IMG/VR virus record: IMGVR_UViG_2740892280_000002
Span: 15,512-79,511 of that record
Source: a virus
Lineage: Duplodnaviria > Caudoviricetes
DNA length: 64,000 nucleotides
Strand: one strand, 5' to 3'
Below the pieces are notes generated by a model. The model was not told where the DNA came from and searched no databases. It was given only the letters and a program-made list of their open reading frames with translations. Each line of letters opens with the position of its first letter. Position 1 is the first letter of the stretch. Shown piece after piece: positions 983-61,085 of this stretch. Both the position numbers and the translations under genes were made by a program.

Positions 983-1338
983 CGCTCGAATCCCTCCCGT
1001 CGCAAATCGTTGTTGGCTATCAGACTGTCGGGGTCTACGTCGATGAAATGATCCCAGCGAGCAACGTCGCGGCCTATAGCGCCGCGCACTCACGGATCCA
1101 TATCGATTCCTCGGCGCATCATACAAACGAGGATATCGTCAACTCGGTTATTCACGAGGTTCTTCACGCCTGTTTCTATACCTCCAATCTCTCACGGCTT
1201 GATCCTGGTGAGCATGAGGAAATGACCGTGACAATGCTCGCAAACTCGCTAACCCAGGTTTTCCGCGACAATCCGGATTTCCTTGACTGGGTCCGCTTCT
1301 CAATCGAGAAAACAAATTGTAGCCAAAAACAGAATTAG
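979..1338 (+). CDS. HExxH zinc metallopeptidase-like phage protein
   Basis: VIHEVLHAC motif plus downstream EE; 4-nt overlap with upstream stop. Confidence 0.6.
   Translation: MTLESLPSQIVVGYQTVGVYVDEMIPASNVAAYSAAHSRIHIDSSAHHTNEDIVNSVIHEVLHACFYTSNLSRLDPGEHEEMTVTMLANSLTQVFRDNPDFLDWVRFSIEKTNCSQKQN
1319..1328 (+). repeat. First copy of dispersed GTAGCCAAAA motif
   Basis: Exact + copies at 1319,1636,3222,4498,6469,7542,8687,12009,22520,29936,34943,48511,49757,61063; exact - copies at 14637,17055,18899,25043,25604,26266,31810; about ten 1-2 mismatch variants. Confidence 0.9.
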
Positions 1339-1340
1339 CC

Positions 1341-1369
1341 CTGTACAGGATTTGCCGGATCGGTTACGA
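1341..1369 (+). promoter_or_regulatory. Early-type promoter CTGTAC-N17-TTACGA
   Basis: Same CTGTAC -35 box and 17-nt spacer as the leftward cassettes at 11575, 15372, 17003, 19615. Confidence 0.5.
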
Positions 1370-1419
1370 CTCTCTCTATCGAAAACGAACGCGAAACAAC
1401 GCGATTTAGGAGAGAGAAG

Positions 1420-1632
1420 ATGTTTGTAGTTCGCAACCGTTCCGGCTACCTGGCCCTTGAAAACGGCGAGTTTTTCTTCGCCAAGAATCCGAACAAAGCT
1501 TTCAAGTTTTCTACGCTTTCCGAGGCAGACGGTTACGCCTCCGAATACGGCGGATCTGCCGAACCTTCCTCCGCTCCGCGCTTCCGCCGGAAGAACGACA
1601 AGCGCTCGCTCGCCTTCTCCCTTGCTGCCTAA
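1420..1632 (+). CDS. hypothetical protein
   Basis: AGGAGAG RBS before ATG; 70 aa. Confidence 0.6.
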   Translation: MFVVRNRSGYLALENGEFFFAKNPNKAFKFSTLSEADGYASEYGGSAEPSSAPRFRRKNDKRSLAFSLAA

Positions 1633-1665
1633 CGAGTAGCCAAAAAAGGAAAGGCGGTTACGCCA

Positions 1666-2964
1666 ATGTCAACGCTTAAGTCAGACGGGATCGTCCTCTC
1701 CTCGGAGCAGGAGACCGCCGTCAAGAAGTTCCGCGATTGGTGGCGCGGCAAAGAAGGCAAGACCTTCTATCTCGCCGGGTACGCCGGTACGGGTAAATCA
1801 ACCGTTGCAAAGATCATGGCCGAGGGTAAAGGTCGGATCGGATACGCGGCTCCGACCCATAAGGCGGCGGCTGTTCTCCGGTCCAAAGGGATCGCAGGCG
1901 CGGGGACGATCCATTCCTTTATCTACATTCTCGAAGAGCCTCGGCGCGAGGACTTTGCGACGGATTGGGAATACGAAAAGGCGCTGATCGCCTTCCTTGA
2001 CTCCCCGGAATTCGCCCTCCAACCCGAAGACTCGCTCGACGAATACGACCTGATCGTCGTCGACGAATGCTCGATGGTAGATCAGAAGACGCTCGACGAT
2101 CTCGAAAAGTTTGCGCCTCGGATCTTGGCGATGGGCGACCCCGGCCAGCTCCCGCCTGTTGGAGGACCCGGAGCCTTTACCTTCCGGGAGCCCGACGCGA
2201 TCTTGACGCAGGTTCATCGTCAGGCGGAGGATAACCCGATCCTGGCACTTGCGACGCAGGTCCGGCTTACGGGCCAGTATGGCGCCTTTGACGATATCCC
2301 GATTATTTCGGCATACGATCACAACGCGGTCGACTGGTTCCTCAATAACGCTGACCAGGTTGTCGCGGGCTTCAACAAGACCCGGCGCGAGGTCAACTTC
2401 CGGGTACGGCGCTTGCGCGGTATTGACGACTTTTGGCCTGTCCCCGGAGATCGGATGATCTCTCAATCGGGAGCGATTATTCACAAGCGCGTCGACCCGT
2501 CCGAGGTTGATCTTTCTTCAACTCTTCGTGGCCTCGGCTTCGAAGACGATACGCAGGACGGCCTCTTCAACGGCGAGGAAGTCGTGATCGAGAAGGTCGT
2601 GCGAGACAAGAATAATCAGGTGATGGAACAGCCTGAATTTCGATCAATCGGCTCTCAGGATTTCAGGTTCAAATCGGCGTATGCGGACATTCGCAAGCTC
2701 GATAAGCCCGGCGTCTATATGGCGAATTGTGTTACAGATTGGTGGAAACCTGACGTCTCCGCGAACCCTCGAAAATGGAGGGGTTTCGTCCATCTCGATT
2801 ACGCTTACGCGATTACGGCGCACAAGAGCCAGGGCTCGGAATGGGAGCGCGTCGCTATCTACGACGACGGCTTCGCGGCCCGGAATATCGAGGATCGGAA
2901 AAAGTGGCTCTATACGGCTGTCACCCGAGCCTCCAAGGCGCTCGCTATCATCAGGTCAAACTGA
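1666..2964 (+). CDS. Dda/RecD-like SF1B helicase
   Basis: GYAGTGKST Walker A, AAPTHKAA, VVDECSMV Walker B, GDPGQLPPV, YAITAHKSQGSEW, LYTAVTRA. Confidence 0.9.
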   Translation: MSTLKSDGIVLSSEQETAVKKFRDWWRGKEGKTFYLAGYAGTGKSTVAKIMAEGKGRIGYAAPTHKAAAVLRSKGIAGAGTIHSFIYILEEPRREDFATDWEYEKALIAFLDSPEFALQPEDSLDEYDLIVVDECSMVDQKTLDDLEKFAPRILAMGDPGQLPPVGGPGAFTFREPDAILTQVHRQAEDNPILALATQVRLTGQYGAFDDIPIISAYDHNAVDWFLNNADQVVAGFNKTRREVNFRVRRLRGIDDFWPVPGDRMISQSGAIIHKRVDPSEVDLSSTLRGLGFEDDTQDGLFNGEEVVIEKVVRDKNNQVMEQPEFRSIGSQDFRFKSAYADIRKLDKPGVYMANCVTDWWKPDVSANPRKWRGFVHLDYAYAITAHKSQGSEWERVAIYDDGFAARNIEDRKKWLYTAVTRASKALAIIRSN

Positions 2965-2994
2965 CGGAGCCTTCTAGCGGTCGTCTTAATACGG

Positions 2995-3053
2995 AAAAAA
3001 TATCCTATCCTTGCCCGCTCCAACTAAGAAGGGCTAGGATGGGATATATTTTT
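2995..3053. repeat. 59-nt hairpin repeat, copy 1 (identical to 31493-31551)
   Basis: aaaaaatatcctatccttgccc-gctccaactaagaa-gggctaggatgggatatattttt; ~22-bp imperfect stem with A tract before and T tract after. Confidence 0.95.
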
Positions 3054-3400
3054 CCTCCTTGTATTTATCCGACCTAGCTCGGTCGCTTTCGCTTCCCGCC
3101 CTATCCGCTTCGGGTAAACCTACGCTATCGGGCGTGACCGAGCTAACGCAGAGTGCGCGCAAGAAGGCTCATCGAAAATAAAGGGTGCTAGGCAGGCGAG
3201 AAGCGTTTCTAGGCTATCGTTGTAGCCAAAAAGATAAGAACGGCTGCGGAGCACCTGTTATTTTTTGATATTGGGTATGATTTGGCATTCTCCGAGGGGT
3301 CAAAAGCGAGAGGGAGAGCGAATAGCGGCTACATCGGCCCTCTTGATAGGGTTTTCGAATTTGGCTACAAGCGGCCAACGCAACCGGAAAGGAGCAACAA

Positions 3401-4501
3401 GTGAAATTTGAAATCGGCAAGGAAAGCCTCTCGGCGGCAATCGGAATGATCGTCTCCGTCCTCGACAAGAAAGCGACCGTCCCGCTCTTCGGCATGGTCA
3501 ACATTGTGTCATACCTCCCGGAAGGGAACAGCGATCTCGGCAAGATCGAATTGTATGGGACGAATGGGATCTCGGAGATCCGGACAACGCTCGAAGCGAC
3601 GGTCGGCGAAGCTGGTCGGATTGCAGTCTCCGGGGAAGTCCTCGGAGGGATCGTCAAGAAGCTTCCGAGTAAACCGGTCAAGGTTGAGATTGACTCAAGT
3701 ATCATGAACGTCAAGTGTGGTCGCTCAAAGTTCAAGGTTACGACCTTGCCCGAGCTCGCTCCGAGCTTGATCGATATGAGCGATGCCGAAGTCGTCTTCA
3801 AGGCTCCCGAGGATTCGTTTATCCCGGCTCTCAAGATGGTTGCCTTCGCAATGTCCGACGACGCGGCGAGGCATTATCTCAATGGTGTCCATATCGATTT
3901 CGAGGACGGCAAGGCGAACCTTGTTGCAACGGACGGCCATCGTCTCGCTCGCAAGGTTATCGAGGTCGACGGCGTTCCTGGGAAAGCCTACACGCTCCCG
4001 CGCCCGGCGGTCGACTTCCTCTCGAAGTATGCCAACGGCGAGGTAACCGTCTCCCTTTCCGCGAACAAGATCACGGTCGGCTTCCTCGGCGGGGTCTATA
4101 CCTCGAATCTGATCGACGGGACCTTCCCCGACTATCGGCGGGTTATTCCGGAGACAACGAAAGAGGTCGCGGAGATCGACAAGGACGAACTCTCGCGGAC
4201 GATCTCTCTCGTTACGGCTACCTCGGAAGCCAAGACGCGGGCGGTCCGGCTCTCGCTTAGCGAGGGGACGCTCGTAACGAACGCGGCAGCGGGCGGGAAC
4301 GAAGGCAAGGACGAAATCGAAATCGACTATGCCGGCCCTCCGATTACTGTCGGCCTAAACGGGAAGTATCTCGCGGAGATCCTCTCCTCGGTTGAAACGC
4401 CCGGCGTCTATTTCGGCGTCAACGATCCGAGCACTCCGATCAAGATCATCCCGACAGATGACGCGGCCTTTACGGCGATCTGTATGCCGCTTCGAGTGTA
4501 G
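3401..4501 (+). CDS. dnaN: DNA polymerase III beta subunit (sliding clamp)
   Basis: 366 aa; RHYLNGV, VATDGHRLA, LIDGTFPDYRRVIP, GLNGKYL and C-terminal MPLRV typical of DnaN; GGAG RBS with GTG start. Confidence 0.95.
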   Translation: MKFEIGKESLSAAIGMIVSVLDKKATVPLFGMVNIVSYLPEGNSDLGKIELYGTNGISEIRTTLEATVGEAGRIAVSGEVLGGIVKKLPSKPVKVEIDSSIMNVKCGRSKFKVTTLPELAPSLIDMSDAEVVFKAPEDSFIPALKMVAFAMSDDAARHYLNGVHIDFEDGKANLVATDGHRLARKVIEVDGVPGKAYTLPRPAVDFLSKYANGEVTVSLSANKITVGFLGGVYTSNLIDGTFPDYRRVIPETTKEVAEIDKDELSRTISLVTATSEAKTRAVRLSLSEGTLVTNAAAGGNEGKDEIEIDYAGPPITVGLNGKYLAEILSSVETPGVYFGVNDPSTPIKIIPTDDAAFTAICMPLRV

Positions 4502-4522
4502 CCAAAAGGAGAAGAATTGATC

Positions 4523-4657
4523 ATGAGAGAGTTTCTTCTTGCCGTAGCGGTCCTCGGCCTTGTCGCAACCGACTTTTACGAAGGCTGGACGGTCGACGAA
4601 GGCGTAACGCTCGCAGTCGCCCTAATCGTAGGAGTGTTGATTTTCTTCGATGACTGA
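4523..4657 (+). CDS. small membrane protein (44 aa, not in ORF track)
   Basis: MREFLLAVAVLGLV...LAVALIVGVLIFFDD; AGGAG RBS; stop overlaps next ATG. Confidence 0.55.
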   Translation: MREFLLAVAVLGLVATDFYEGWTVDEGVTLAVALIVGVLIFFDD

Positions 4658-4895
4658 ACTTTTCGATCTCGGCCTAGGAGGGGATTTAACCCCTCCGAAA
4701 GCCTTCCCGGTCTACGGGCGGACTTCCTTCGGAGATCTCTCCGAATGCCCGTCCTGCGGCTTCAAAATCCCATTCAACGCAAAAGGCGACTTCGAGACGC
4801 TCGATCTCTTCGGAGAGGCGAAAGAGGTTCCGACCGATTGCCCGGCTTGTCGCGAGGAATACGACGCGGGAGCCAATCTTAGGAGGATCCATTGA
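4650..4895 (+). CDS. zinc-ribbon protein
   Basis: CPSC and CPAC pairs. Confidence 0.6.
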   Translation: MTELFDLGLGGDLTPPKAFPVYGRTSFGDLSECPSCGFKIPFNAKGDFETLDLFGEAKEVPTDCPACREEYDAGANLRRIH

Positions 4896-6465: not shown

Positions 6466-6487
6466 CTTGTAGCCAAAAGGAGAAAAA

Positions 6488-6667
6488 ATGATCTTGTTCG
6501 AATTCAATCGCTGGCGTCGTGCCATCGATCTCCGGAAGCGGCGGGCTGCTGCCGCGATCCGGGTTGTTGAGCATACGCGGGCTCAGCGGCATATCGCTGC
6601 TCAATCTGCATACGAATATTACGTCGAGCTCGCCGAGGAGCTTGATCAGGTAGAGGGGAGGGCCTGA
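6488..6667 (+). CDS. hypothetical protein (59 aa)
   Basis: GTAGCCAAAAGGAG RBS, ATG 6488, TGA overlapping next ATG. Confidence 0.55.
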   Translation: MILFEFNRWRRAIDLRKRRAAAAIRVVEHTRAQRHIAAQSAYEYYVELAEELDQVEGRA

Positions 6668-7437: not shown

Positions 7438-7457
7438 GCTAGCTTCTCTCGATTTGT

Positions 7458-7472: not shown

Positions 7473-7507
7473 TAGTGCTCGCAGTCGCATATTTCAACAC
7501 TCAATCG

Positions 7508-7536: not shown

Positions 7537-7568
7537 AAAACGTAGCCAAAAACGGAAAAGGAGATACA

Positions 7569-8587: not shown

Positions 8588-8705
8588 TCCCGCTCTCCCT
8601 GATCTTCCCCCTATTGCCGACAGGCATCCCTGGCCGCGTAGGGTATCGCAAGCTAAAGGCGGAGGCGCTCTCGGCGTCTCCTGATCGTAGCCAAAAGGAG
8701 AAAAA

Positions 8706-11546: not shown

Positions 11547-11574
11547 GTCGTTCTCTCCGTCGTTGTTGAGATTG

Positions 11575-11603
11575 ACTATAAGTGCCGTAGCCAAACTGTA
11601 CAG
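11575..11603 (-). promoter_or_regulatory. early promoter CTGTAC-N17-TATAGT
   Basis: Repeated cassette with shared CTCAACAA..ACGGAGA leader. Confidence 0.65.
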
Positions 11604-11648
11604 TGTAAATCGCACAAGAATTCTGTTTTTGTCGACAGGCTAGGGAGC

Positions 11649-11975: not shown

Positions 11976-12123
11976 GTCGTCGTCTCTCTCGTTTGATGTT
12001 GATTACGTGTAGCCAAAAACAGAAAAGCTGACCAGTGCGATTTCTGAAAAACGCACATTGATTGCGCCGTTACCGGAATCGTGTACCTAATACCGAGGGT
12101 TGAAGTTTGTTGAGGGGCGAGAA

Positions 12124-12984
12124 ATGTCAGAGGAAGAAAGTGTCGACGATGACAAGGAAGCAAAGAGCGAAAAAGGCAGCGGCTTAGACACGGTCGAGCG
12201 CCTCAACAAAATGGGCGGCAAAGACGGGTTGCTTGAACGCTTATTTGGCGGAAGTGTCGACATTCTCGGGGGTAAGTTAACGGCGCTTACAGCATGGGCG
12301 TTTGAAGAGAGGCAGGCAAATACTCGCTCGCATGTTGAAGCTGTCCAGGCGAAAAACCCGGAGCTTATCGATATAACACCCAACCTAAAGACCATCGAAT
12401 ACTTTCACGAATGGCAAAAGAAGGCGGAAAACGTCGGGCCTGACGATGCAGACGCAGCACTCTGGCGTGGCATACTTGAAGATATATTGCGGGGTGAGGA
12501 TAGATTTCAGTCAGATATAATTGACATTGCTAAAAAAATAGACGCGAAAGATTTTGAAATTCTTCGGAAGGTGCGTCAGGGCGGCATAAGAATAACTCAC
12601 GATGCTAGAATAGATCGTTTAATTAGACTTGGCTTGATACAAATTTCTACATCAAATATGATTTTGGGGCAGAGCCTTTTGCTAGGTTCGCTTTTCGCGA
12701 TTGCGTATTTGCTCAAGTTCGTTTCGGATTATGTCGTCGGGGACGGGAGTTTAGATGCTGCGATAGGCGCGGCTATGCTTATGCTCTTCCCAACTTTTCT
12801 CCTGTTTACAAGTATTCGAATGATAAGGTGGAGAAAAGAACGGGCACAATCAAGGGCTAGGCTGTTAAAGGAGAGGGTATTATCCGCGTCAGAGCGTTAT
12901 TATGATTACTATTTTAACGCAAACTACGCAGAGATATCCCCTGTAGGTCGAATATTAATGGAAATGACAGATAGGTATTCATAG
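12124..12984 (+). CDS. AT-rich moron; Abi-alpha (DUF4393)-like N-terminus plus two transmembrane helices
   Basis: ITPNLKT..WQKKAE..ALWRGIL..IIDIAKKIDAKDFEIL resembles the Abi-alpha pattern; opposite strand to neighbours. Confidence 0.45.
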   Translation: MSEEESVDDDKEAKSEKGSGLDTVERLNKMGGKDGLLERLFGGSVDILGGKLTALTAWAFEERQANTRSHVEAVQAKNPELIDITPNLKTIEYFHEWQKKAENVGPDDADAALWRGILEDILRGEDRFQSDIIDIAKKIDAKDFEILRKVRQGGIRITHDARIDRLIRLGLIQISTSNMILGQSLLLGSLFAIAYLLKFVSDYVVGDGSLDAAIGAAMLMLFPTFLLFTSIRMIRWRKERAQSRARLLKERVLSASERYYDYYFNANYAEISPVGRILMEMTDRYS

Positions 12985-13372: not shown

Positions 13373-13766
13373 TTGCTGCCCTCCGTGCTTCGAATTGAAC
13401 CCACGCCGCAGCCGCTTGGAAGAGAGCGGCGGCAGGGCTATCGCCGATCCCATGATAACCTGGCCCCATATCGATATCGGCGCGGAAACCGCTTACGCGC
13501 GAGACCGGGTCGACATACGGGTAAATCTCGATATCGGGCTGCGTATATTTGAGCTCCTCAAGCCAGGAATTCCAGCGCCGGACGGCTAGGTCCATATCGC
13601 TTGCGAAAGGCCCTCTACGACCGCAAGAGAAGCATTTGACTGCGGTCTTTCGCTCTCCCGGCTTTTCCGTAAACTGGTCGACCGAGGCGAGGGTATTTTT
13701 CGACCCGCACTTCGGGCAGGGGTTCGCGTCGTCGCGAATATTAAGCTGAAACTTTGGTTCGATCAT
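13359..13766 (-). CDS. Lar-like restriction alleviation zinc-ribbon protein with C-terminal extension
   Basis: CPKCGS..VKCFSCGRRGP..AVRRWN pattern; GGAGG RBS. Confidence 0.6.
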   Translation of the reverse strand: MIEPKFQLNIRDDANPCPKCGSKNTLASVDQFTEKPGERKTAVKCFSCGRRGPFASDMDLAVRRWNSWLEELKYTQPDIEIYPYVDPVSRVSGFRADIDMGPGYHGIGDSPAAALFQAAAAWVQFEARRAASEPN

Positions 13767-14082
13767 TGATCCAGCCCTCCGTTTGATGTTCGCGCCAAGC
13801 GCCATTTGTGATCCGATCCCAGAAGCCGGCACCGCCTTCGCATTCCGATTTGTACGGGATAACCGAGTGGTGCAATTCCCTTTGAAGCATCTTCCCGCGA
13901 GCGTGGTCGTCCGGGTAGATCGCGCAGCTACCTAGCTCCTTAAGTACCCACGGCGGAGGGAGTTTCGGCCACTCCTTGAGGGAGCCGAGGAGATCGTAGT
14001 GAACCGGCGCCATCTGCTCGAAAGACGCGGCCTTGTAGCTTTCGGGTAGGTCGGTAGCGAGTTGGAAGCGTTCCACGATCAA
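13741..14082 (-). CDS. hypothetical protein
   Basis: GGAGGG RBS, operon position. Confidence 0.5.
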   Translation of the reverse strand: MIVERFQLATDLPESYKAASFEQMAPVHYDLLGSLKEWPKLPPPWVLKELGSCAIYPDDHARGKMLQRELHHSVIPYKSECEGGAGFWDRITNGAWREHQTEGWINDRTKVSA

Positions 14083-14621: not shown

Positions 14622-14653
14622 GTTGTTCCTTTCTGTTTTTGGCTACGCTCTGG

Positions 14654-15345: not shown

Positions 15346-15371
15346 CGTCTATCTCCGTTTGTTGAGACCGA

Positions 15372-15400
15372 CTTATAAGTGCGCCGCGAACGCTGTACAG
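15372..15400 (-). promoter_or_regulatory. early promoter CTGTAC-N17-TATAAG
   Basis: Cassette homologous to 11575-11603. Confidence 0.65.
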
Positions 15401-15428
15401 AGAAAACGCACAAGATTTCTGTTTTTGG

Positions 15429-15650
15429 CTATGATTTGTCCAAAAACCCAGGGCGCAGTTGGGCGGTTGGTATAGGAGCCCAGGCGCGAACGCGAGCGCC
15501 AAAATTAGCGCCGTAGTAGAAGGCGTAGGGCTCATCCCATACGAGCTTGTCCTGAAGCCTCCCGATAAAGATCCCGCCTTCGCTCGCTAGGAAGATCGCA
15601 TCCTTATCCTTCGGGCATTCGTCCAACTTCCGGCTAAGGATGATACTCAT
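15429..15650 (-). CDS. hypothetical protein (73 aa)
   Basis: 3' part of track ORF; GGAGG RBS; ATGA overlap. Confidence 0.5.
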   Translation of the reverse strand: MSIILSRKLDECPKDKDAIFLASEGGIFIGRLQDKLVWDEPYAFYYGANFGARVRAWAPIPTAQLRPGFLDKS

Positions 15651-16975: not shown

Positions 16976-17002
16976 TTCCGTCTCCGTCGTTGTTGAGATC
17001 TT

Positions 17003-17031
17003 ATGTAGACGGAATCGGAAAAGCTGTACAG
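17003..17031 (-). promoter_or_regulatory. early promoter CTGTAC-N17-CTACAT
   Basis: Cassette homologous to 11575 and 15372. Confidence 0.6.
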
Positions 17032-17157
17032 ATGAAAATGCACGAAAAATATGTTTTTGGCTACATTGTTTTCTGGCAGTAATCGCTCCGCCATTTTAGG
17101 TTCGGAGCGTCAAAGGGGCTTATCTCTTTGGCAAACTAGAAAGGGGGTGACGCACTG

Positions 17158-18880: not shown

Positions 18881-18927
18881 GTTGCTCTCCTTTTCTGTTT
18901 TTGGCTACGTTCCCGGCAAGGGAAGGC

Positions 18928-22099: not shown

Positions 22100-22523
22100 T
22101 TTCTATCAGGTTGGCTATCTAGCCGCCTCTGATGAGTACCAGGACGAAATCGACCGTCTTCAGGCCGATGTAGATCGCCTTGAGGCTGAAAACCGCTTCT
22201 GGACCACCATCGCCGGGGGGTTGCTTCGAGATCCGAAGGAAGGCGACCTCGGCGAGGCTCTTTGTCTCGTAGGCCGGACGAAGCCGGAGGCTTGGATCTC
22301 CGCGCCCGGTTCCGAGGCGCACTTTCCAGTCTGCCTGTCTTTTTCCAATTCGTCGGTGCCTGGGGAGGTCGCGCACTACTTCCATAAAGATCGCGTCGTC
22401 TCGAAAGAAGCAGCTCTCCGCTGGGTTGTCGGCGAGATCGTTCTCCGGATCGCGGAATTTACTCCGCTCGCGCTCCTCGGGCTCGTTTGCCTTCTTTGGG
22501 GCATTGTCTCGTTCGCCTCGTAG
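22083..22523 (+). CDS. hypothetical protein with coiled coil and C-terminal TM
   Basis: GGAGAG RBS; lies between terminase subunits. Confidence 0.5.
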   Translation: MTKTIDFYQVGYLAASDEYQDEIDRLQADVDRLEAENRFWTTIAGGLLRDPKEGDLGEALCLVGRTKPEAWISAPGSEAHFPVCLSFSNSSVPGEVAHYFHKDRVVSKEAALRWVVGEIVLRIAEFTPLALLGLVCLLWGIVSFAS

Positions 22524-22535
22524 CCAAAAACGAAA

Positions 22536-23975
22536 ATGCAGCTACAGCTATTCCCGAAACAAACGCTAGCCTTTACATCGCTAGCTACCGAGATCCTTTA
22601 CGGCGGCGCAGCAGGCGGCGGCAAGTCCCACCTGATGCGCGTCGCGGCGGTCGCTTGGTGTATCGATGTGCCGGGTATTCAGGTCTATATCTTCCGGCGT
22701 CAATACGGCGACCTTTTCGCCAACCATATGGAAGGCCCGAGCGGGTTCCTTTCCCTCCTCTCCGAGTGGGTCGAGGCCGGTTACGTCAAGATCAACTTGT
22801 CGGATAACAAGATCCGTTTCTGGAACGGGTCGGTAATTCACCTCTGCCACTGCCAGCACGAAAAAGACCGGTTCAAATATCAGGGCGCGGAAATCCACGT
22901 CCTGATGATCGATGAGCTGACGCACTTTACCGACAAGATCTATCGCTTTCTCCGTAACCGCGTCCGCTTGTCCGGTCTTGATATCCCGGCAAAGTACAAG
23001 GGCCTGTTTCCGCGTATCCTCTGCGGCTCTAACCCCGGCGGCGTCGGTCATACGTGGGTCAAGTCGACCTTTATCGACCCGAAGCCGGAGCTTGAGATTT
23101 ACCGCGCGTCGGACGACGAAGGCGGGATGCTTCGCCAGTACATCCCGGCGAAGATGTCCGATAACCCGAAGCTTGCCGAGGATGACCCGGATTACGAGAA
23201 GCGTCTAAAGGGTCTCGGTGATGAAGCGCTTGTCCGGGCAATGAAGGACGGCGACTGGAATATCGCTCTCGGCGCGTTCTTCGCAGACGTTTGGAAGCCT
23301 GGGCGGATTATCCTCCCGCACTTCAAGATCCCGAATACATGGCGTGTCGACCGGTCTTTTGACTGGGGTTCCGCGAAACCGTCCGCAACGATCTGGTGGG
23401 CCGAAACAGACGGGACCGAGGTCGAGATCCCCGGTCGAGGTCCGTTCGCCTTCCCGCGCGGGTCACTTATCGCGATCTCGGAGGACTATACGTGGAACGG
23501 AAAGCCGGACGAAGGTCTGCGCCTTCATTCGACCGAGCTCGCGCGTCGTATCAAGGAGATCGAAGGCAAGCTCGGGCTATCGCAGATGATCCACCCAGGC
23601 CCGGCGGACAACGCGATTTATGATGTTCAAGACGGCAAGTCGATTGCATCCGAAATGGAGAAAATCGGCGTCCGCTGGATCCGGTCCGACAAGTCTCCCG
23701 GCTCCCGTGTCAACGGGTGGGATCACATGCGCAAGATGCTCAAGAACGCGGCTCCGACCGATGAAGAGGGTAACGCTCTCCCGGTCGAGGAGCCAGGGCT
23801 CTGGGTCATGGACAATTGCCGGCATATTATCCGAACACTTCCCGCGCTCCCGCGTGACGAGAACAAGCCGGACGATATCGATACGAAGGCCGAAGACCAT
23901 ATCGCCGATGCCGCCCGTTATCGCGTTGCCGCGCCTAAGAGGTCGGTTACAAGCTCCAAGCTTGGCGGAACCTAG
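22536..23975 (+). CDS. terL: terminase large subunit
   Basis: YGGAAGGGKS Walker A, IDELTHF Walker B, SNPGG, FDWG nuclease motif, EDHIADAARY. Confidence 0.95.
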   Translation: MQLQLFPKQTLAFTSLATEILYGGAAGGGKSHLMRVAAVAWCIDVPGIQVYIFRRQYGDLFANHMEGPSGFLSLLSEWVEAGYVKINLSDNKIRFWNGSVIHLCHCQHEKDRFKYQGAEIHVLMIDELTHFTDKIYRFLRNRVRLSGLDIPAKYKGLFPRILCGSNPGGVGHTWVKSTFIDPKPELEIYRASDDEGGMLRQYIPAKMSDNPKLAEDDPDYEKRLKGLGDEALVRAMKDGDWNIALGAFFADVWKPGRIILPHFKIPNTWRVDRSFDWGSAKPSATIWWAETDGTEVEIPGRGPFAFPRGSLIAISEDYTWNGKPDEGLRLHSTELARRIKEIEGKLGLSQMIHPGPADNAIYDVQDGKSIASEMEKIGVRWIRSDKSPGSRVNGWDHMRKMLKNAAPTDEEGNALPVEEPGLWVMDNCRHIIRTLPALPRDENKPDDIDTKAEDHIADAARYRVAAPKRSVTSSKLGGT

Positions 23976-25031: not shown

Positions 25032-25048
25032 GAAAATTCTCCTTTTGG

Positions 25049-25222
25049 CTACACGTTGGTCAAGTCATCGATTGCAATCGTTAGGCCGATAGAATCGTAG
25101 TCGGGTGTTTTGCTGATCTCGATTGCGCCGGAGATAACCCCGGCTCCGAGGAGCGTAAGAATTGTCAGGATCAGGATCGCTTCGACGATTTTCCCGGCGA
25201 GGTAACGCTTAAATTCGCTCAT
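25049..25222 (-). CDS. small membrane protein
   Basis: One TM helix. Confidence 0.5.
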   Translation of the reverse strand: MSEFKRYLAGKIVEAILILTILTLLGAGVISGAIEISKTPDYDSIGLTIAIDDLTNV

Positions 25223-25500: not shown

Positions 25501-25625
25501 CTCGTTTCTCCGTGTTGTAGCCATTTACCGAAGATTCGGGACGGTTGTCCATACCCAAAAACAGAAAAACAGCGCGGGGAGCGCTGCTTCTCTAAAATTC
25601 AGCTTTTGGCTACAGTTGCCGCAAG

Positions 25626-26233: not shown

Positions 26234-26617
26234 TCAGTGTCCTTTCTTCGTTTCGTTTTTTCCGATTTTGGCTACTTTCGAGCGACTGATAAGCGAACGT
26301 TTAAGGCGTTCCTTGGCAGTATCGCGCTGCTTGGCAGTAACCTTGCCGCTAGGCGTTACCGACAGGTCGTATCGGTGATAGCCCGAGAGGATTGCGCGGT
26401 AATAGGAGCGTTTGCTCGTATACCGCTTGAGAGCGAAGTGGGTAACTCGCCCGGAGACGTCCGGGTAAAGCTTGCGGATATCCTTGTAGATCCCGACCTT
26501 GAGCGGGATTTTTGCCCGGCTCTTATCGAGGATAAAAACATCCGGGTGATCGTCTGCGAGGCGAGCTAGAAAAGCGTCTGCCTCAGACTTGATCTTGTAA
26601 TAGGTCGCCTTGTTCAT
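26234..26617 (-). CDS. ProQ/FinO-domain RNA chaperone
   Basis: PLKVGIYKDI, ALKRYT...Y, G..RYDL...P.G.VT..Q...A are ProQ/FinO core motifs. Confidence 0.85.
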   Translation of the reverse strand: MNKATYYKIKSEADAFLARLADDHPDVFILDKSRAKIPLKVGIYKDIRKLYPDVSGRVTHFALKRYTSKRSYYRAILSGYHRYDLSVTPSGKVTAKQRDTAKERLKRSLISRSKVAKIGKNETKKGH

Positions 26618-26657: not shown

Positions 26658-26686
26658 TTATAGATTCCGGTTTTGTCTACGTCAAG
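26658..26686 (-). promoter_or_regulatory. sigma70 promoter CTTGAC-N17-CTATAA
   Basis: Near-perfect alphaproteobacterial RpoD consensus upstream of the FinO-domain gene. Confidence 0.7.
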
Positions 26687-27053: not shown

Positions 27054-27092
27054 GCGGATTTTTTGTCGGCTACCTGTAGCCAATAACTTAAG

Positions 27093-29853: not shown

Positions 29854-29954
29854 TATTCCTGACGCGCAGCCTTGCGATAGAATCTGCATACGCCAAGGAA
29901 ACGGGGAAATTCTCCTGGTTTTCGTCGCGCATCTAGTAGCCAAAAAGGGAATTT

Positions 29955-31492: not shown

Positions 31493-31551
31493 AAAAAATA
31501 TCCTATCCTTGCCCGCTCCAACTAAGAAGGGCTAGGATGGGATATATTTTT
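31493..31551. repeat. 59-nt hairpin repeat, copy 2 (identical to 2995-3053)
   Basis: Exact sequence identity read from both sites. Confidence 0.95.
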
Positions 31552-31869
31552 TACTATTTAATTTCCTTCCCTCCTCACCCGCGCCTTTGTCGCTACGGGT
31601 AAACCTTCGCTAGGCGCGGGCGAAGAGTGACCGACCGAACGACTTAGGACCCAATCGAAAACGTCACGAGGATTAATTTTTAGGGGTGCTAGGCAGGCGC
31701 TATTCAGAAATTGGCTACGACGATAGCTCCAACCCCTTAAGCGCTCTCTATGGCCGTTTATTTTGTATTCCTGAAATGTGTTGGTCTGGATTTGTCTCAA
31801 AGATTGATTTTTTGGCTACAAGTCGTTATCTGATCCCCGGCAACGACCCGAGGAAAGGAGATTTCGATT

Positions 31870-32841: not shown

Positions 32842-32940
32842 TTGTAGCCAAATTTCGAATTGTCGATACGGGCACCTTACGACAACGGTACGCCGATACC
32901 CGGCGTGCCGCTGCGCGGTTTACCTCCTGTGGAGAAGTCA

Positions 32941-34940: not shown

Positions 34941-34963
34941 TTGTAGCCAAAAACCGAAAAATT

Positions 34964-34988
34964 GGGCGGGGATTTCCCCGCCCTTTTT
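34964..34988 (+). terminator. intrinsic terminator after capsid gene
   Basis: gggcgggga/tccccgccc stem plus T5. Confidence 0.75.
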
Positions 34989-35031
34989 GTTTCCGGCTAA
35001 AATTCAACAACTCAAGAAATTGGAGACGAAT

Positions 35032-48508: not shown

Positions 48509-48535
48509 GCGTAGCCAAAATCGAAAGGTTAAGAC

Positions 48536-49753: not shown

Positions 49754-49780
49754 TTCGTAGCCAAAATCAGAAGATTGTAT

Positions 49781-55585: not shown

Positions 55586-58500
55586 ACGCCCCTGTTTTAC
55601 ATCGGAACATTATCGGCTCTGGCGGCTCCGGCGGCGGTAAAGGCGGTAGTGGAGGAAGTCGGACACCGGTCGAGGATAGAAACACTCTCCGGTCACGTGC
55701 GACCGTCCGCGCAATCGATATCATCTCAGAAGGTGCTATCGGCGGGCTCGTTGACGGCGCGAAATCTATCTTTTTCGATGATACTCCGCTCCAAAACGAA
55801 GACGGTTCTTTCAACTTCGAAAACGTCTCATGGACGCTTCGGAAGGGTACGCCAGATCAGGATTACATTCCGGGGTTTTCCTCCGTTGAAACCGAGCGCG
55901 GCGTCGGTATCGAGCTCAAGAAAACCGCTCCGCTTGTTCGCCAGATCGTAGATCCCGACGTCGATGCTGTTCGCGTCGCTATTCGTGTTCCGCGCCTTAC
56001 TCTTGCGAACAAAGAGAACGGGGACATTCACGGAACCGAAGTCGAGGTCGCAATCGACATTCAATCGTTCGGCGGGTCCTACAAGCAGGCGACCGTTGTC
56101 CGGATTGCGGGCAAGACTACAAGCCCGTATGAGCGCCAGGTCGTCGTAAACCTCCCGGCGGGCGGAGCTCCTTGGAATATCCGCCTGCGGCGTCTAACTG
56201 CTGACGATCAAACTTCGGAGATCTCCCGGCAAACGTACTGGTCACGCTATACCGAGATCCTCTACGAAAAACTCTCCTACCCGGACTCTGCTCTTGTCGG
56301 TCTAATCCTAGATGCAGAGTATTTCGGTGGAACGATCCCGAAGCGCTCCTATGAAATCTACGGGATTGAGGTCCGTATTCCGTCCAACTATGACCCGATT
56401 GCGCGGACCTATTCCGGGATCTGGAATGGAACATTCAAGACGGCTTGGACGGATAACCCGGCCTGGGTCTTCTATGACATCCTGACAAACGACAGGTATG
56501 GCTTAGGCGAGTTTATCGACACGTCTCAAGTCGATAAGTATGCCCTCTATTCAATCGCGCAATACTGCGATGAATTGATCCCGGACGGCTTCGGAGGAAC
56601 CGAGCCGCGCTTTACCGTAAACGCTGTCATCAATACGAGACAGGAAGCTTACAACCTGATCTCTCAGATCGCGTCTTCGTTCCGGGCAATGCCGTACTGG
56701 CGGACCGGGGCGGTTACGGTCGCTCAGGATAGCCCGAAAGATCCGGTCAAGCTTGTTACGCAGGCCGACGTTATCAACGGCGAATTTAACTACTCCGGCG
56801 TCGGCCTTAAAGCCAAGCCGACAGCCGTCGCCGTAACTTGGAACGATCCCGAATTCCAGTTCAAGCAGACTGTTGAATTCGTCGAGGATCAGGAGGAGAT
56901 CGCTCGCCTCGGGTGGCGTCAAAGAGACGTTCACGCATGGGGTTGTACGTCTCGCGGCCAAGCGCACAGGTACGGGAAATGGATTCTCGATACGGCGCGT
57001 TACGAGACGGAAACCGTAAACTACCGGGCGTCGCTTGATCATACCGATATCGTCCCCGGCGACGTTATTCTAGTTGCCGACCCGTCCTACGCTGGCGTGC
57101 GTTACGGCGGGCGCTTCGTTTCCGTCGACGGCTCCTCGGTCGTTCTCGATGCTCCAATCGAGATAGAGGAAAATCAAACCTACACGATCATCGCCGAGCT
57201 GCCCGATGGCGTAATCGAGGAGCGTAATCTCGTTACGACGCCGGGCGAGACGGATACATTTACGCTTGCGAGCCCGTTCTCGGTCGAGCCTCAAACCGAG
57301 GCGATGTACATCGTTCGCTCAAACGACGTAAACCCGCGACCGTTCCGCGTCCTTTCAATCCGGGAAGCAGAGGCAAATATCTATGAGGTCACGGCGCTCT
57401 TTTATGACGCGACGAAATACGCTCGCGTAGAGCAGGGGGTCTTCCTTGAGACTCCGAGCTTCTCCGACCTCCCGACCGGCCCGGTTGGACGTCCCGGCGA
57501 GATCAACACGGAGGAATATCTCTATAGAAGCATCAACACCGTAAAGGCGGGGATTTCTGTTTCCTGGGCTCCGTCCGACGACAGCCGTGTGCTTTATTAC
57601 GAGCTCCAAATCAAAAGGCCGAATGAACCTGTCTTCGAAAGCATCTATCAAGGCTCTGTCCCGACCGCCGAGGTTTACGATGCCCAATTCGGGCAGTGGC
57701 AGTTCCGCGTCCGCTCTATTACGGCGTTCGGGCAGTTGTCGGCTTGGAGAACTAGCGACGCCGTCCTTGTAGCGGGCCTAGAAGAGCCTCCGGCGGACGT
57801 TGACGGGTTCCGCGTCCAGGTCCTTGGTGATACCGCCTTCCTGCGCTGGAATGGTAATACGGAGCTAGATCTAGCTGGTTACGAGATCCGCTTCTCCTCG
57901 GTTCGCGTTAGCGAAGGCGCGACGTGGGGAACGTCCCAGGTAATCGTTACCAACGTCCCGCCCTCGGCGACTACGGTCTCTCTTCCCGTTAACGTCGGCT
58001 CCTATTCGATCAAGGCTTTCGATACTTCCGGCAAATACTCCCGGAATGCAGCCTTTATCGACAATCAGATTTCGATCAATGAAAACTACAACGCTGTTCA
58101 TAGGATTGTTGAGCATCCGGATTGGAGCGGGGTTTACGGTCCCGATATGACCGTGGTCCTCGATGAGCTGCGTATGGTCGACGGCGTAAGCGAGGCAACC
58201 TACATTCTTGCTGAGCAGTTTGATCTCGGCGAAGTCTTTACGAGCCGCGTAACTCCTCGGATCGTGTCCGGTATCATCAATTACGCAAACGTTATGTCGA
58301 GCTGGGCGCGGCTCTCGGACCTGCTTTCTCTCGCGAACAACGATCCTGACGATGTTACTGTTTCCCTTGAGATCCGGACAACGAACGACGACCCGTCGCT
58401 AACCCCGGTTTGGACGGAATGGGAGCCTCTTATCGTCGGCGATTATACCGCGAGGGCTTTCGAGTTTCGCCTAACCCTTAAATCTATGCGGGAGCGCGTA

Positions 58501-58788
58501 ACGCCGAGTATCCGGGAGCTCGAAATCGAAATCGATATGCCGGACCGGACGCATGGAGAGAAGGATCTAGCCTGCCCTGTTGAAGGGCTTCGGGTTACCT
58601 ATTCCCCGGCCTTCCGCAACGATCCGGCAATCGCGATTGCGGCTCAAGGGCTTGAAACGGGCGATTATTACCTGATCACCAACAAGGGCGATACTGGCTT
58701 CGATATCCAGTTTTTCAATGCGTCAGATGTAGCCATTTTCAGAACTTTTGACTACATCGCAAAAGGCTACGGCAAGAAGGTTAGCTAA
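55582..58788 (+). CDS. tail tip / host specificity protein J-like
   Basis: ISEG.I.G, KLSYP.SA, Y.G.W.GTFK.AWTDNPAWV.YD, GC.SRGQA.R.GKW, FN3 repeats. Confidence 0.95.
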   Translation: MNAPVLHRNIIGSGGSGGGKGGSGGSRTPVEDRNTLRSRATVRAIDIISEGAIGGLVDGAKSIFFDDTPLQNEDGSFNFENVSWTLRKGTPDQDYIPGFSSVETERGVGIELKKTAPLVRQIVDPDVDAVRVAIRVPRLTLANKENGDIHGTEVEVAIDIQSFGGSYKQATVVRIAGKTTSPYERQVVVNLPAGGAPWNIRLRRLTADDQTSEISRQTYWSRYTEILYEKLSYPDSALVGLILDAEYFGGTIPKRSYEIYGIEVRIPSNYDPIARTYSGIWNGTFKTAWTDNPAWVFYDILTNDRYGLGEFIDTSQVDKYALYSIAQYCDELIPDGFGGTEPRFTVNAVINTRQEAYNLISQIASSFRAMPYWRTGAVTVAQDSPKDPVKLVTQADVINGEFNYSGVGLKAKPTAVAVTWNDPEFQFKQTVEFVEDQEEIARLGWRQRDVHAWGCTSRGQAHRYGKWILDTARYETETVNYRASLDHTDIVPGDVILVADPSYAGVRYGGRFVSVDGSSVVLDAPIEIEENQTYTIIAELPDGVIEERNLVTTPGETDTFTLASPFSVEPQTEAMYIVRSNDVNPRPFRVLSIREAEANIYEVTALFYDATKYARVEQGVFLETPSFSDLPTGPVGRPGEINTEEYLYRSINTVKAGISVSWAPSDDSRVLYYELQIKRPNEPVFESIYQGSVPTAEVYDAQFGQWQFRVRSITAFGQLSAWRTSDAVLVAGLEEPPADVDGFRVQVLGDTAFLRWNGNTELDLAGYEIRFSSVRVSEGATWGTSQVIVTNVPPSATTVSLPVNVGSYSIKAFDTSGKYSRNAAFIDNQISINENYNAVHRIVEHPDWSGVYGPDMTVVLDELRMVDGVSEATYILAEQFDLGEVFTSRVTPRIVSGIINYANVMSSWARLSDLLSLANNDPDDVTVSLEIRTTNDDPSLTPVWTEWEPLIVGDYTARAFEFRLTLKSMRERVTPSIRELEIEIDMPDRTHGEKDLACPVEGLRVTYSPAFRNDPAIAIAAQGLETGDYYLITNKGDTGFDIQFFNASDVAIFRTFDYIAKGYGKKVS

Positions 58789-58791
58789 AGA

Positions 58792-60003
58792 ATGGCACAG
58801 GCAAATCTCGGGACGATTGACCCGTCGACCACTAGCGGAACGGATCTTTCAACCCTCCTGAGCAATTTCGACGACGCGGTTACCTCCGGCCACTCTGGGG
58901 CGGCGCGTCCGGCTTACGCTCTCCAAGGGATGACCTGGACGCAGATCGTTTCGGCCTCCCAGCACAACATCATGTATTACGACGGCGACGCCGATATCGA
59001 ATTCGGACGGTTTGACGTTGCAAACAATCGCCTGACGATGCGGCCATACGATCTAGCGACAATCGCAGGTGTTACGGCGGGAGGCGATATCGCTTCAAAC
59101 GGAACCTACTTCCGGGGCGGTGGTAAGCGGGCTATTCAGTTCTCGGATAGCCTGCTCCGTCTCAACCCGGACGGCGATTTCGCAAACGGTATCTTTACAC
59201 CGGGCCTGATCCGGGCGGACGGCGGGGCGTTAGTTGACTCGGTTCGCGGGATCAAGAACGTAACCGGCGATTACGGAACCGTTCAGACCGTCGGCGCTGG
59301 GATTGGTAGCTGGGCCGGTTACAACATCGACGGCAATGCCGCATTTATGTCGAACGGAAGCGGCTACGGGCTCTACGACGACGTCAACAATCAATGGGGT
59401 GTTCTTTGCACTCCTGCCGGTAATACCGACCTTTACGCAGGCGGGGCAGTCAAGGTAACCGCTGACGCTTCGGGCGCGATTGTTCAAGGTCGACTCCACG
59501 CTACCGATCAAATGTACGTCGGCAACAACGGCGGCGGCGATAGCTGGATCCAGTTCTACGACGACAACTCGAATACGTGGCGTTATTTCGGGTGGGACGA
59601 CTCCGCGAATTCCTTCGTCTACGAAGACAACGCAGGAGCCATCAAGTCGATTGGTGCGGCGAATTTTGTCGAGCTGACTCGCGGATCTGGCTGGGCTCAA
59701 AATACTCGCTACAACATAAACCACAACCTCGGCACTACGCCAAACTTTGGCTACGCCTTCCTCAGGTGCAAGACCTCCGAATTCGGATGGTCCGCCGGGC
59801 AGTGGGCGGCGACGGGCACGACCGATAGGTCAAACAACGATGGGAGCCAGTTGGATTTCGGCATCACGATTGGATGGAGCAGCACCCAGGCATGGGTAAA
59901 GACCGGGACCGAGGGGCCGTACCTTCGTCGTCTCGATACGAACGGCTGGATGAAGCCAACAGCAGCAAACTGGGAAATTAAAATCTTGGTCGGGAGTGTG
60001 TAA
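58792..60003 (+). CDS. tail fibre / receptor-binding protein
   Basis: N-terminal anchor with HSG..RP; G/N/W-rich beta shaft; follows J. Confidence 0.75.
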   Translation: MAQANLGTIDPSTTSGTDLSTLLSNFDDAVTSGHSGAARPAYALQGMTWTQIVSASQHNIMYYDGDADIEFGRFDVANNRLTMRPYDLATIAGVTAGGDIASNGTYFRGGGKRAIQFSDSLLRLNPDGDFANGIFTPGLIRADGGALVDSVRGIKNVTGDYGTVQTVGAGIGSWAGYNIDGNAAFMSNGSGYGLYDDVNNQWGVLCTPAGNTDLYAGGAVKVTADASGAIVQGRLHATDQMYVGNNGGGDSWIQFYDDNSNTWRYFGWDDSANSFVYEDNAGAIKSIGAANFVELTRGSGWAQNTRYNINHNLGTTPNFGYAFLRCKTSEFGWSAGQWAATGTTDRSNNDGSQLDFGITIGWSSTQAWVKTGTEGPYLRRLDTNGWMKPTAANWEIKILVGSV

Positions 60004-60473
60004 TGCGAATTTACGTCAAGGAAGATGGATACCTCGATAGTATCCATTACCCATTCGTCGAGAAAGACGGAACCGAGATTTATGCGGAGATTGAAGATCA
60101 ATCTTTGATCCTTGTTGAAGGTGCGCCGGAGCCTGAAAACGGGCTTATGAGGTGGGATTTCGAAGAGGGGAAATGGCTTGAGCCTAGCCCTGAAGTCCGT
60201 AGGGCGGCGATGCCAAGCCTTACCAAGAAGGCGTTCAAGTTTGGTTTGATCGACAACGATATCGATCCCGCCTTGATCGATAGCTATATCGATAGCATCG
60301 CGGACCAAAAGGAACGTATGAAGGCTCGCGTAAACTGGGACGATACAACGACCGTTTCGCGGACCGATGAAATGGTTGTAGCCATTTCCGCAAGTCCTGA
60401 ATTCAATCTTTCTCCTGAGCAGGTCGACGCCATGTGGTCGGACGCCTACCAAAACTACATGGCGGTCATCTAG
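60003..60473 (+). CDS. tail fibre assembly/chaperone-like protein
   Basis: WDFEEGKW, SLT...F..GL, V.R....V position after fibre. Confidence 0.6.
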   Translation: MRIYVKEDGYLDSIHYPFVEKDGTEIYAEIEDQSLILVEGAPEPENGLMRWDFEEGKWLEPSPEVRRAAMPSLTKKAFKFGLIDNDIDPALIDSYIDSIADQKERMKARVNWDDTTTVSRTDEMVVAISASPEFNLSPEQVDAMWSDAYQNYMAVI

Positions 60474-61018
60474 TGCAAATCCTTCTCTGGTTCCTCGCTC
60501 TTCCCGTCTTCATGCTCGCAAATCGCTTTTGCGGGGGTGGCTGGCCGCGTTTATCCGATCCCTTGCCGGGTAGGGCTCTATATTGGGTCTCGCCTGTCCT
60601 TGGCCTGATTGCGGGCCTCTTCTGGGGATGGCAACTCGGCGTTATTGTCGGCGTTGGTTTTTGGCTTTGGCGGATGACCGGCTGGGGTCTTTGGTTTGAT
60701 CTCCATCGGGATGATGAAGAACAGAAAAACGACAAAAGGCATGACGACTTATTCGTAAAGGCGATCAACGCGATTTCGTTCGGCTCGGACTATGTCGCCC
60801 TCTTCTGGCGGCACGCCTTGTTCTTCCTCCCGGTCCCGCTCGCGTGGTTCTTTCTCGCCGGTAACCCTTTCGTAGCTCCTCTTTACGCGGTCGCCTTCGG
60901 CGTCCTCGCTGTTGGCGCTTACGAGCTCCGCTGGCATACCTCTCTCGGCAATACCCTTTCCGAGATGTTGGTCGGCGGTCTTTGGTGGCTCTTTATCGCG
61001 TTCCTGCTGATCTCCTAA
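60473..61018 (+). CDS. multi-pass membrane protein
   Basis: Four to six hydrophobic W/G-rich segments; upstream of endolysin. Confidence 0.65.
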   Translation: MQILLWFLALPVFMLANRFCGGGWPRLSDPLPGRALYWVSPVLGLIAGLFWGWQLGVIVGVGFWLWRMTGWGLWFDLHRDDEEQKNDKRHDDLFVKAINAISFGSDYVALFWRHALFFLPVPLAWFFLAGNPFVAPLYAVAFGVLAVGAYELRWHTSLGNTLSEMLVGGLWWLFIAFLLIS

Positions 61019-61040
61019 GCTAACTCGATATTCCTTCCGG

Positions 61041-61085
61041 ACGCTCCTTTCGCCGTAGGTTTGTAGCCAAAAGCGAAAGGAGCGT
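61041..61085 (+). promoter_or_regulatory. RBS-sequestering hairpin of the endolysin gene
   Basis: acgctcctttcgc / gcgaaaggagcgt perfect 13-bp stem; 3' arm holds AAGGAG; loop contains GTAGCCAAAA. Confidence 0.8.

Follow-up and report, generated by a model that had tools for sequence, protein, structure and literature searches.

The stretch analyzed here, hereafter the window, comprises 64,000 nucleotides (bases 15512–79511) of G000, a 79,511-bp IMG/VR provirus record, and is punctuated by a short directional motif, GTAGCCAAAA, that recurs at gene boundaries. The genes of the window encode helicases, DnaN, a C5 methylase, a 3′–5′ exoribonuclease, a ProQ/FinO protein, the large terminase, and portal, head, tail and endolysin proteins. 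To the left of the window, the first 15.5 kb of the record hold genes for an integrase, ThyX, ribonucleotide reductase, dUTPase and a 267-aa repressor as well as a divergent early operon, and the coding share of the record is 91%. The phage is temperate and comes from a marine alphaproteobacterium, with the integrase gene at the left end of the record. Nucleotide and protein searches among isolated phages returned no close relative, the best terminase and capsid matches having 50–59% identity. A Pfam scan of about 70 proteins, which was not exhaustive, returned no sigma factor, RNA polymerase, or NusG/RfaH-like, N-like or Q-like protein.

A bipartite motif oriented with transcription

The initial annotation had counted at least 21 exact copies of GTAGCCAAAA in the window, 14 on the plus and 7 on the minus strand, and had expected such a 10-mer well under once by chance. 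Our recount gave identical numbers and coordinates, and dinucleotide shuffles of the window contained 0.03 copies on average and at most 1. Allowing up to one mismatch yields 36 matches (2.5 expected), and the whole 79.5-kb record contains 25 exact copies. When these 25 copies are aligned, the full element emerges as a bipartite, asymmetric 17-mer without dyad symmetry, GTAGCCAAAA-N3G-AA-A, in which positions 0–9 are fixed, positions 10–12 are variable (most commonly ACA, GGA or TCG), position 13 is G in 18 of 25 copies, positions 14 and 15 are A in 25 and 24 of 25 copies, respectively, and position 16 is mostly A. At a score of at least 13, a weight matrix of the 17-mer finds 47 sites in the record and 1 in the reversed-sequence control; an earlier, wider matrix placed 40 sites above the control maximum. 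The commonest extended form is GTAGCCAAAAACAGAAA, with 3 exact copies in the window, and an identical 22-mer is present at both 6469 and 8687, each as first described. Nowhere in the window did an Rfam covariance model match at gathering score, a literature search for the 10-mer returned primers only, and a pattern scan of IMG/VR for GTAGCCAAAANNNGAAA gave at least 117 single chance matches, none of them from a relative as judged by tblastn with the phage proteome.

We placed the 30 strongest sites relative to gene calls that are crude, being derived from codon usage and corrected by hand at two places. Twenty-two of these sites lie wholly in non-coding sequence (p = 0.084 for a random 17-mer to be non-coding) and four more share with the upstream gene only the TAG that is its stop codon, giving 26 of 30 that are non-coding or stop-only. 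Four strong sites overlap only the last codons of a gene, and one truly internal strong site, in the ribonucleotide reductase gene, is kept there as coding sequence. Twenty-eight of the 30 are co-oriented with the next downstream gene. The initial annotation is thereby confirmed in placing the motif at gene boundaries, often with its TAG as upstream stop, and in having it change strand with the operons. Two strong copies, at G000 1591 and window 31810, are antisense to all annotated neighbors.

For about 20 of the 30 strong sites, a start codon follows within 20 nt of the motif end. In about seven copies the variable spacer is GGAG or similar and acts as the ribosome-binding site for a gene starting 6–8 nt on, and about half of the copies abut or contain a ribosome-binding site. 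The distance from motif to start codon ranges from 0 to more than 160 nt, and behind some copies a terminator comes before any gene; the motif does not, therefore, hold the fixed position a few bases before the start that would mark a start-associated sequence (SAS). Nor does it have the features of a phage-specific promoter: the aligned copies show no conserved −10 box at any fixed distance. Pairing with the 3′ end of 16S rRNA was ruled out by eye because the conserved AA is not in constant register to the Shine–Dalgarno (SD) sequence. At least four copies (3222, 25604, 34943 and 49757) are directly followed by a terminator hairpin with no gene between, three terminators have a motif copy on each side, facing inwards, with the far-side copy weaker, and further copies are located after terminators (L216 10977 and 14146 and window 18899 and 61063). 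A scan for consensus promoters and terminators gave counts no higher than in shuffled sequence.

The repressor, related phages and promoters

The repressor gene lies 8 kb left of the window on the minus strand (G000/L216 6726–7529) and encodes, in one chain, two tandem HTH_3 (XRE-type) helix–turn–helix (HTH) domains followed by a peptidase-S24-like domain (Pfam). An AlphaFold2 (AF2) model of the protein has helical HTH domains at residues 13–67 and 79–131 and a beta domain, and its best fold matches are 186 CI, lambda CI and LexA. Sequence and fold searches of the PDB with the repressor returned CylR2, 186 CI, lambda CI and LexA and did not return the TipsytheTRex/L5 repressor; given the lack of an L5-type match in sequence or fold, we regard the protein as an analog of those repressors at most and not as a member of the Cluster A family. 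Full-length homologs number a handful among billions of proteins. In an alignment read by eye, the catalytic Ser and Lys motifs of LexA, GxSM and VKRL, correspond to GFDM and IRRL in the S24-like domain, with Ser changed to Asp and Lys to Arg. As the domain apparently lacks the Ser/Lys dyad of LexA, RecA-stimulated self-cleavage is unlikely and an antirepressor may be needed for induction.

The closest repressor homolog, with 66% identity, is encoded in a syntenic prophage of an uncultured Roseibium metagenome-assembled genome; the comparison rests on the 40 kb recovered of this prophage, which is about 73% identical to G000 in nucleotide sequence. These 40 kb contain 16 exact 10-mers and 27 matrix sites, compared with 1 in the control, and about 4 kb of flanking host chromosome contain one weak match. 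Thirteen orthologous sites are kept between the two phages, so the motif is conserved beyond the genome in which it was first noticed. At these sites the core is 94% identical and positions 14–15 are 100% identical, as against 63% for the spacer and 53–56% for the flanks. These identities show that purifying selection acts on two blocks around a free spacer, a pattern that suggests a site read by a protein.

A more distant syntenic contig (L243), whose repressor is 32–33% identical, has sites of the (A/C)TAGCCAAAA type and CTAGACAAAATCGAAAT; position 0 is A or C, never G, in all six of its sites, and the first recognition helix of its repressor differs. In a further relative (L218) the repressor is 35% identical with a first recognition helix identical to that of G000, and only two or three degenerate motif copies are present. 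All carriers of the motif (G000, L217/L241/L257, L243 and, weakly, L218) encode the tandem-HTH repressor. No such motif was found in helicase relatives without this repressor (L220 and L246), in the helicase relatives L219 and L221, or as an enrichment among 80 IMG/VR loci with generic single-HTH CI relatives; likewise, the motif is not enriched in terminase relatives from IMG/VR and GTDB genomes, which are at most 59% identical. The phyletic pattern of the motif is also matched by a RuvC-like protein and by the product of the first early-operon gene (L216 7661–8167, plus strand), a 168-aa protein without a Pfam family that is 37–69% identical across three related phages. The C-terminal third of this early protein is arranged as helix–helix–helix–strand–strand in a low-confidence model and could be a winged helix; searches of the ESM Atlas and of folds returned nothing significant for it.

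A good rightward early promoter (TTGACA, 16 nt, TACAAC) is predicted in the interval that separates the repressor gene from the early operon. The −35 box of this promoter, together with the spacer, forms a motif-like sequence, GTTGACAAAAACGGAAG, in which two core changes create the −35 box and whose score of 16.7 with the position weight matrix is well above the control maximum. The equivalent site of the Roseibium prophage, GTTGACAAAATCGGAAA, is changed in two places alone, one a free spacer position and the other position 16. As the site precedes any transcript from the promoter, it is an argument for reading of the motif in its DNA form, at least at this place. The interval from the switch region to the repressor gene contains no co-oriented site. 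Behind the repressor gene on the minus strand (L216 6620–6725), a terminator hairpin is followed by GTAGACAAAAATGAAAG, a variant of the motif, and then by another hairpin, with TACAAG in its loop; the dUTPase, ribonucleotide reductase and ThyX genes come after this segment with no clear promoter of their own, and the layout in the Roseibium prophage is the same. The site at L216 6675 is uncertain as a promoter and was not used, as its −10-like hexamer sits in the loop of a terminator hairpin.

Sigma-70-like promoters are also predicted after the motif at L216 8651 and at window 1319, 11627, 15423 and 17055. The last three bear out the claim of the initial annotation that copies lie upstream of leftward promoters. 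The −35-like TGTACA begins 34–35 nt after the motif start, and the figure of 32–33 nt in the initial annotation depends on the point from which one counts. The −10-like boxes behind TGTACA at these three places are TATAAG, TATAGT or CATAAG. Each belongs to a leftward promoter module on the minus strand (11560–11640, 15360–15435 and 16990–17065) in which the motif is followed by 4–5 nt, GTGCG(A/T)TTT, TGTACA within CTGTACAG, 16–19 nt, the −10-like box, and TCTCAACAA...GGAG. The module is kept in the Roseibium prophage (L257 16427 and 19535).

A GTGCGATTT box also lies behind the motif at 12009, ahead of an AT-rich gene on the plus strand (12125–12984) within the leftward block. This gene encodes 286 aa with hydrophobic segments and is missing from the Roseibium prophage, where the preceding motif and about 35 nt downstream of it are kept; it resembles a moron and may function in exclusion or abortive infection. 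Two homologous non-coding elements (2995–3370 and 31493–31820) have further blocks in common besides a 59-bp hairpin with A/T tails that is identical in both, and each holds motif copies antisense to the flanking genes (3269 and 3359; 31709 and 31810); neither of these twins has an Rfam match.

Four homology breaks relative to the Roseibium prophage fall within 7 bp of the motif, at G000 17156, 21995, 24215 and 30945 (window 1645, 6484, 8704 and 15434); with unrelated genes beyond them, the motif marks mosaic joints at these copies. Relatives of the phage end at tRNA-like sequences with a GGGATTCGAACCC-type T-arm (L243 8440–8520, L244 1420–1470 and L218 13900–13950), which suggests integration into tRNA genes. 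In the distant helicase relative L246, a non-coding stretch of 500 bp (13545–14040) has GCGGGTAA 13 times, counting both strands, and is most likely an iteron-type replication origin; given this clustered, origin-like arrangement, we rejected the block as an analog of the motif.

Sites of the motif in the window, with strand and immediate context (window coordinates; "relative" is the Roseibium prophage)
Element	Position	Strand	Context
motif GTAGCCAAAAACAGAAT	1319..1335	+	over last codons of upstream gene; -35-like TGTACA 23 nt from motif start; orthologous copy in relative
motif	1636..1652	+	upstream stop 3 nt before, helicase start 13 nt after; kept in relative, homology breaking right behind
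motif	3222..3238	+	within non-coding element, helicase-dnaN interval; T-run behind
weak inverted copy ATACCCAATATCAAAAA	3262..3278	-	faces 3222; score 16.3; counterpart in relative stronger
variant GTAGCCAAATTCGAAAA	3352..3368	-	antisense to dnaN; kept in relative
motif	4498..4514	+	TAG is dnaN stop; GGAG spacer as SD
motif	6469..6485	+	behind C5-methylase gene; GGAG spacer is SD, ATG 3 nt past 17-mer; homology with relative stops at motif
motif	7542..7558	+	ahead of exoribonuclease gene; SD downstream
motif	8687..8703	+	GGAG spacer; 22-mer identical to 6469
variant GTCGACAAAAACAGAAT	11620..11636	-	precedes leftward promoter module (TGTACA / TATAGT)
motif	12009..12025	+	before AT-rich plus-strand gene 12125-12984 in leftward block; kept in relative
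motif	14630..14646	-	separates two leftward genes; SD downstream
variant ATAGCCAAAAACAGAAA	15416..15432	-	TAG is upstream stop; leftward promoter module downstream
variant GTAGCCGAAAAGATAAA	16178..16194	-	over 3' end of upstream gene
motif	17048..17064	-	leftward promoter module downstream
motif	18892..18908	-	hairpin on one side, SD of next leftward gene on other
variant GTAACCGAAATCAGAAA	19616..19632	+	antisense to neighbors; TGTACAG behind
variant GTCGCCAAAAACGCAAA	20821..20837	-	divergent region between DUF3489-like gene and methyltransferase gene
motif	22520..22536	+	TAG is upstream stop; last base is first of large-terminase ATG
motif	25036..25052	-	TAG is upstream stop; GGAG spacer as SD
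weak inverted copy ATACCCAAAAACAGAAA	25551..25567	+	beyond terminator hairpin
motif	25597..25613	-	terminator hairpin directly behind
motif	26259..26275	-	over 3' end of ProQ/FinO gene
variant GTAGCCAATATCGAAAA	26630..26646	-	ahead of ProQ/FinO gene
variant GTAGACAAAACCGGAAT	26664..26680	-	
variant GTAGCCAATAACTTAAG	27076..27092	+	ahead of portal gene
motif	29936..29952	+	Mu-F-like head gene starts 2 nt on
motif	31803..31819	-	antisense to neighbors; in second non-coding twin element
variant GTAGCCAAATTTCGAAT	32844..32860	+	upstream stop 3 nt before
motif	34943..34959	+	major capsid stop 2 nt before; terminator directly behind
weak inverted copy	34984..35000	-	beyond 34943 terminator; score 12.9, at control level
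motif	48511..48527	+	T-run on one side, 405-aa tail-region gene on other
motif	49757..49773	+	stop of 405-aa tail-region gene 3 nt before; terminator behind
motif	61063..61079	+	ahead of endolysin (glycoside hydrolase 19) gene; 3' half of motif pairs into 13-bp hairpin

A candidate operator array and its alternatives

Our leading, if tentative, reading of these sequences is that the motif constitutes a dispersed, stoperator-like array of operators for one phage regulator, the likeliest candidate being the tandem-HTH repressor. This reading builds on the motif itself, its statistics, the purifying selection on its two blocks, its presence in phages of the repressor lineage and the motif-like site at the predicted early promoter, all of which are observed; the identity of the binder and the effect of binding we infer. 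The lack of a co-oriented site between the switch region and the repressor gene also speaks for it, as does L243, in which position 0 of the motif and the first recognition helix both differ. We posit that the two unlike HTH domains of one repressor chain would occupy successive major grooves, at the GTAGCC block and the GAA block, whose centers are about 11 bp apart with the minor groove of an A-tract between them, and such an arrangement would explain a 17-bp site without dyad symmetry. The motif-like site covering the −35 box of the early promoter would then be an ordinary operator, and in the lysogen the many consensus copies found at gene boundaries would work, depending on their orientation, as roadblocks or silencing sites, as L5 stoperators do, and possibly also as dispersed operators, as for the P1 C1 repressor. 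Among the functions proposed in the initial annotation, a site for a specific phage protein gains from the two-block conservation; a promoter core is disfavored because the use of the spacer as SD sequence puts the motif in the mRNA, the −10 box is not conserved and terminators lie directly behind copies.

We are cautious about this operator array given several points that weigh against it. The consensus copies are not at promoters, and the sole clear promoter-overlapping site has two core mismatches. The motif is nearly unchanged across phages whose repressors are only 32–66% identical, and immunity specificities usually diverge faster than that. The co-occurrence of motif and repressor is thin, involving three or four related phages only, and the 168-aa early protein and the RuvC-like protein share the phyletic pattern of the motif, so that either could be the binder instead. 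A roadblock is redundant at copies just ahead of terminators, and the fact that about half of the copies abut or contain a ribosome-binding site would suit a role at the RNA level as well.

Such a role is less likely. In it, a phage protein (for example a translational repressor like RegA of T4, an endonuclease similar to RegB, or a stability factor) would bind or cut the transcribed GUAGCCAAAA-N4-AA in the untranslated stretch between cistrons and so tune translation or decay of the flanking genes. It would fit the strict co-orientation with genes, the proximity of most strong copies to start codons with the spacer often being the SD sequence itself, the copies in 3′ untranslated regions just ahead of terminators, and the presence of a ProQ/FinO-domain protein and a 3′–5′ exoribonuclease among the phage proteins; the two-block conservation would equally suit a protein that binds single-stranded RNA. 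However, the distance to the start codon is far from constant, the motif-like site that covers the −35 box at the early promoter precedes every transcript and has been kept in the relative, and the copies at G000 1591 and window 31810 are antisense to all annotated neighbors. There is also no conserved RNA structure around the copies, with flanks only about 55% identical and no Rfam match, and FinO-domain proteins recognize terminator hairpins rather than linear motifs.

We consider it quite improbable that the motif is a promoter-associated element, be it UP-like, a site for an activator or a stand-in for the −35 region, through which host RNA polymerase would be boosted at phage promoters. 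In at least six places the motif has a sigma-70-like promoter behind it with a −35 box starting 21–23 or 34–35 nt from the motif start, the two distances differ by one helical turn, and the arrangements are kept in the relative; furthermore, the A-rich 3′ half of the motif resembles an UP element and TAGCCA resembles TTGACA. Most copies, however, leave no room for a promoter before the start codon, several are transcribed by virtue of the spacer serving as SD sequence, no −10 box occurs at a fixed distance, four copies have terminators directly behind them, and the Pfam scan of about 70 proteins, which was not exhaustive, detected neither a sigma factor nor an RNA polymerase gene. The oriented repeats of TLS and T1 have been discussed in the same promoter-associated terms (PMC11447400).

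It is very unlikely that the motif is an elongation-control signal of the ops or nut kind, at which an antitermination or processivity factor would load for read-through of intergenic terminators in lytic growth. The strict transcriptional polarity, the copies just upstream of at least four terminators and the three terminators flanked by inward-facing copies would agree with such a signal, and the core shares GTAGC with the Escherichia coli ops element, GGCGGTAGnnTG, possibly by chance. Against this, no NusG/RfaH-, N- or Q-like protein was found among the about 70 proteins scanned, known systems need one site per operon and not one per gene, and many copies lie behind terminators and not ahead of them. 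We attach a similarly small probability to an RNA docking sequence shared by almost every phage transcript. A rightward transcript of the twin non-coding elements would contain the core in exact complement (UUUUGGCUAC-type tracts at 3359 and 31810) and, with the ProQ/FinO protein of the phage as chaperone, could pair with all of about 40 intercistronic sites adjacent to ribosome-binding sites, which would form one small-RNA regulon gating translation of the whole genome.

Least probable of all is a module-boundary linker, a short homology for recombination between related phages without a regulatory role: homology between G000 and the Roseibium prophage breaks at about 28 points, of which 4 are no more than 7 bp from the motif (about 0.4 expected) with unrelated genes beyond, but this coincidence is partly built in, because alignments extend to the last conserved intergenic block, and a linker needs neither an invariant AA four bases past a free spacer nor strict polarity. 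A sigma-54 promoter on the opposite strand and IHF, CtrA, LexA or DnaA boxes were dropped by eye.

Relation to known phage systems

The initial annotation did not recognize the motif as a described element, which our literature search upholds for the sequence but not for the kind of element, given the L5 stoperators and the P1 C1 operators. L5-type repressors are monomers with two DNA-binding domains that bind asymmetric 13-mers oriented with transcription (PMC9283540). The array described here resembles the stoperators of Cluster A phages (L5 gp71 and TipsytheTRex) in comprising dozens of asymmetric, transcription-oriented sites in short intergenic spaces that often touch start or stop codons and in the presence of two DNA-binding domains per repressor chain. 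The motif-like site at the predicted early promoter may correspond to the copy that Cluster A phages have at their early promoter. The array differs from theirs in that a two-block site of 17 bp, unrelated in sequence, takes the place of the 13-mer, the host is alphaproteobacterial rather than actinobacterial, and the repressor has a CI/LexA fold; binding and orientation-dependent blocking would apply here by analogy. To our knowledge, genome-wide oriented arrays of repressor sites have been experimentally established only in Cluster A mycobacteriophages, and dispersed operators in P1.

Phage P1 has 22 dispersed, asymmetric 17-bp C1 operators (PMC8546580). The motif shares with these its asymmetry, its length of 17 bp and its dispersal over the genome of a large temperate phage of a Gram-negative host, and differs in that most copies here are without a promoter. 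The operators of P1 are located at promoters of individual operons, and C1 is not known to be related to XRE/CI proteins. Repeats of 21–22 nt in T1, TLS and Stevie are oriented, mainly intergenic, present in 16–21 copies and of unknown function (PMC4319613, PMC11447400). Like the motif, these repeats are asymmetric, co-oriented and composed of two blocks (a 5′ ATAGCAC and a 3′ TAAAA around a variable middle); unlike the phage studied here, the T1-like phages are virulent and without a repressor, and their repeats lie about 76 nt before starts, whereas half of the copies here abut a ribosome-binding site. As far as we know, the T1-like repeats have gone unexplained for twenty years. The SAS of Cluster K mycobacteriophages is reportedly a conserved 13-bp motif just before many start codons that includes the ribosome-binding site, in contrast to the present motif, which lies at varying distances from start codons and in several cases leads only to a terminator.

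New in the present case would be the occurrence in an alphaproteobacterial phage and the use of a CI/LexA-fold repressor with a duplicated HTH domain, the kind of element itself being already known. If our reading is correct, an oriented operator array evolved independently in a marine alphaproteobacterial prophage, on a CI/LexA scaffold by means of HTH duplication, and roadblock silencing of a whole prophage would be a convergent strategy and not a curiosity of actinophages. A compact, asymmetric 17-bp operator and its single-chain repressor would then form a pair for use in Alphaproteobacteria, and the motif would provide a sequence handle for finding a poorly sampled lineage of phages.

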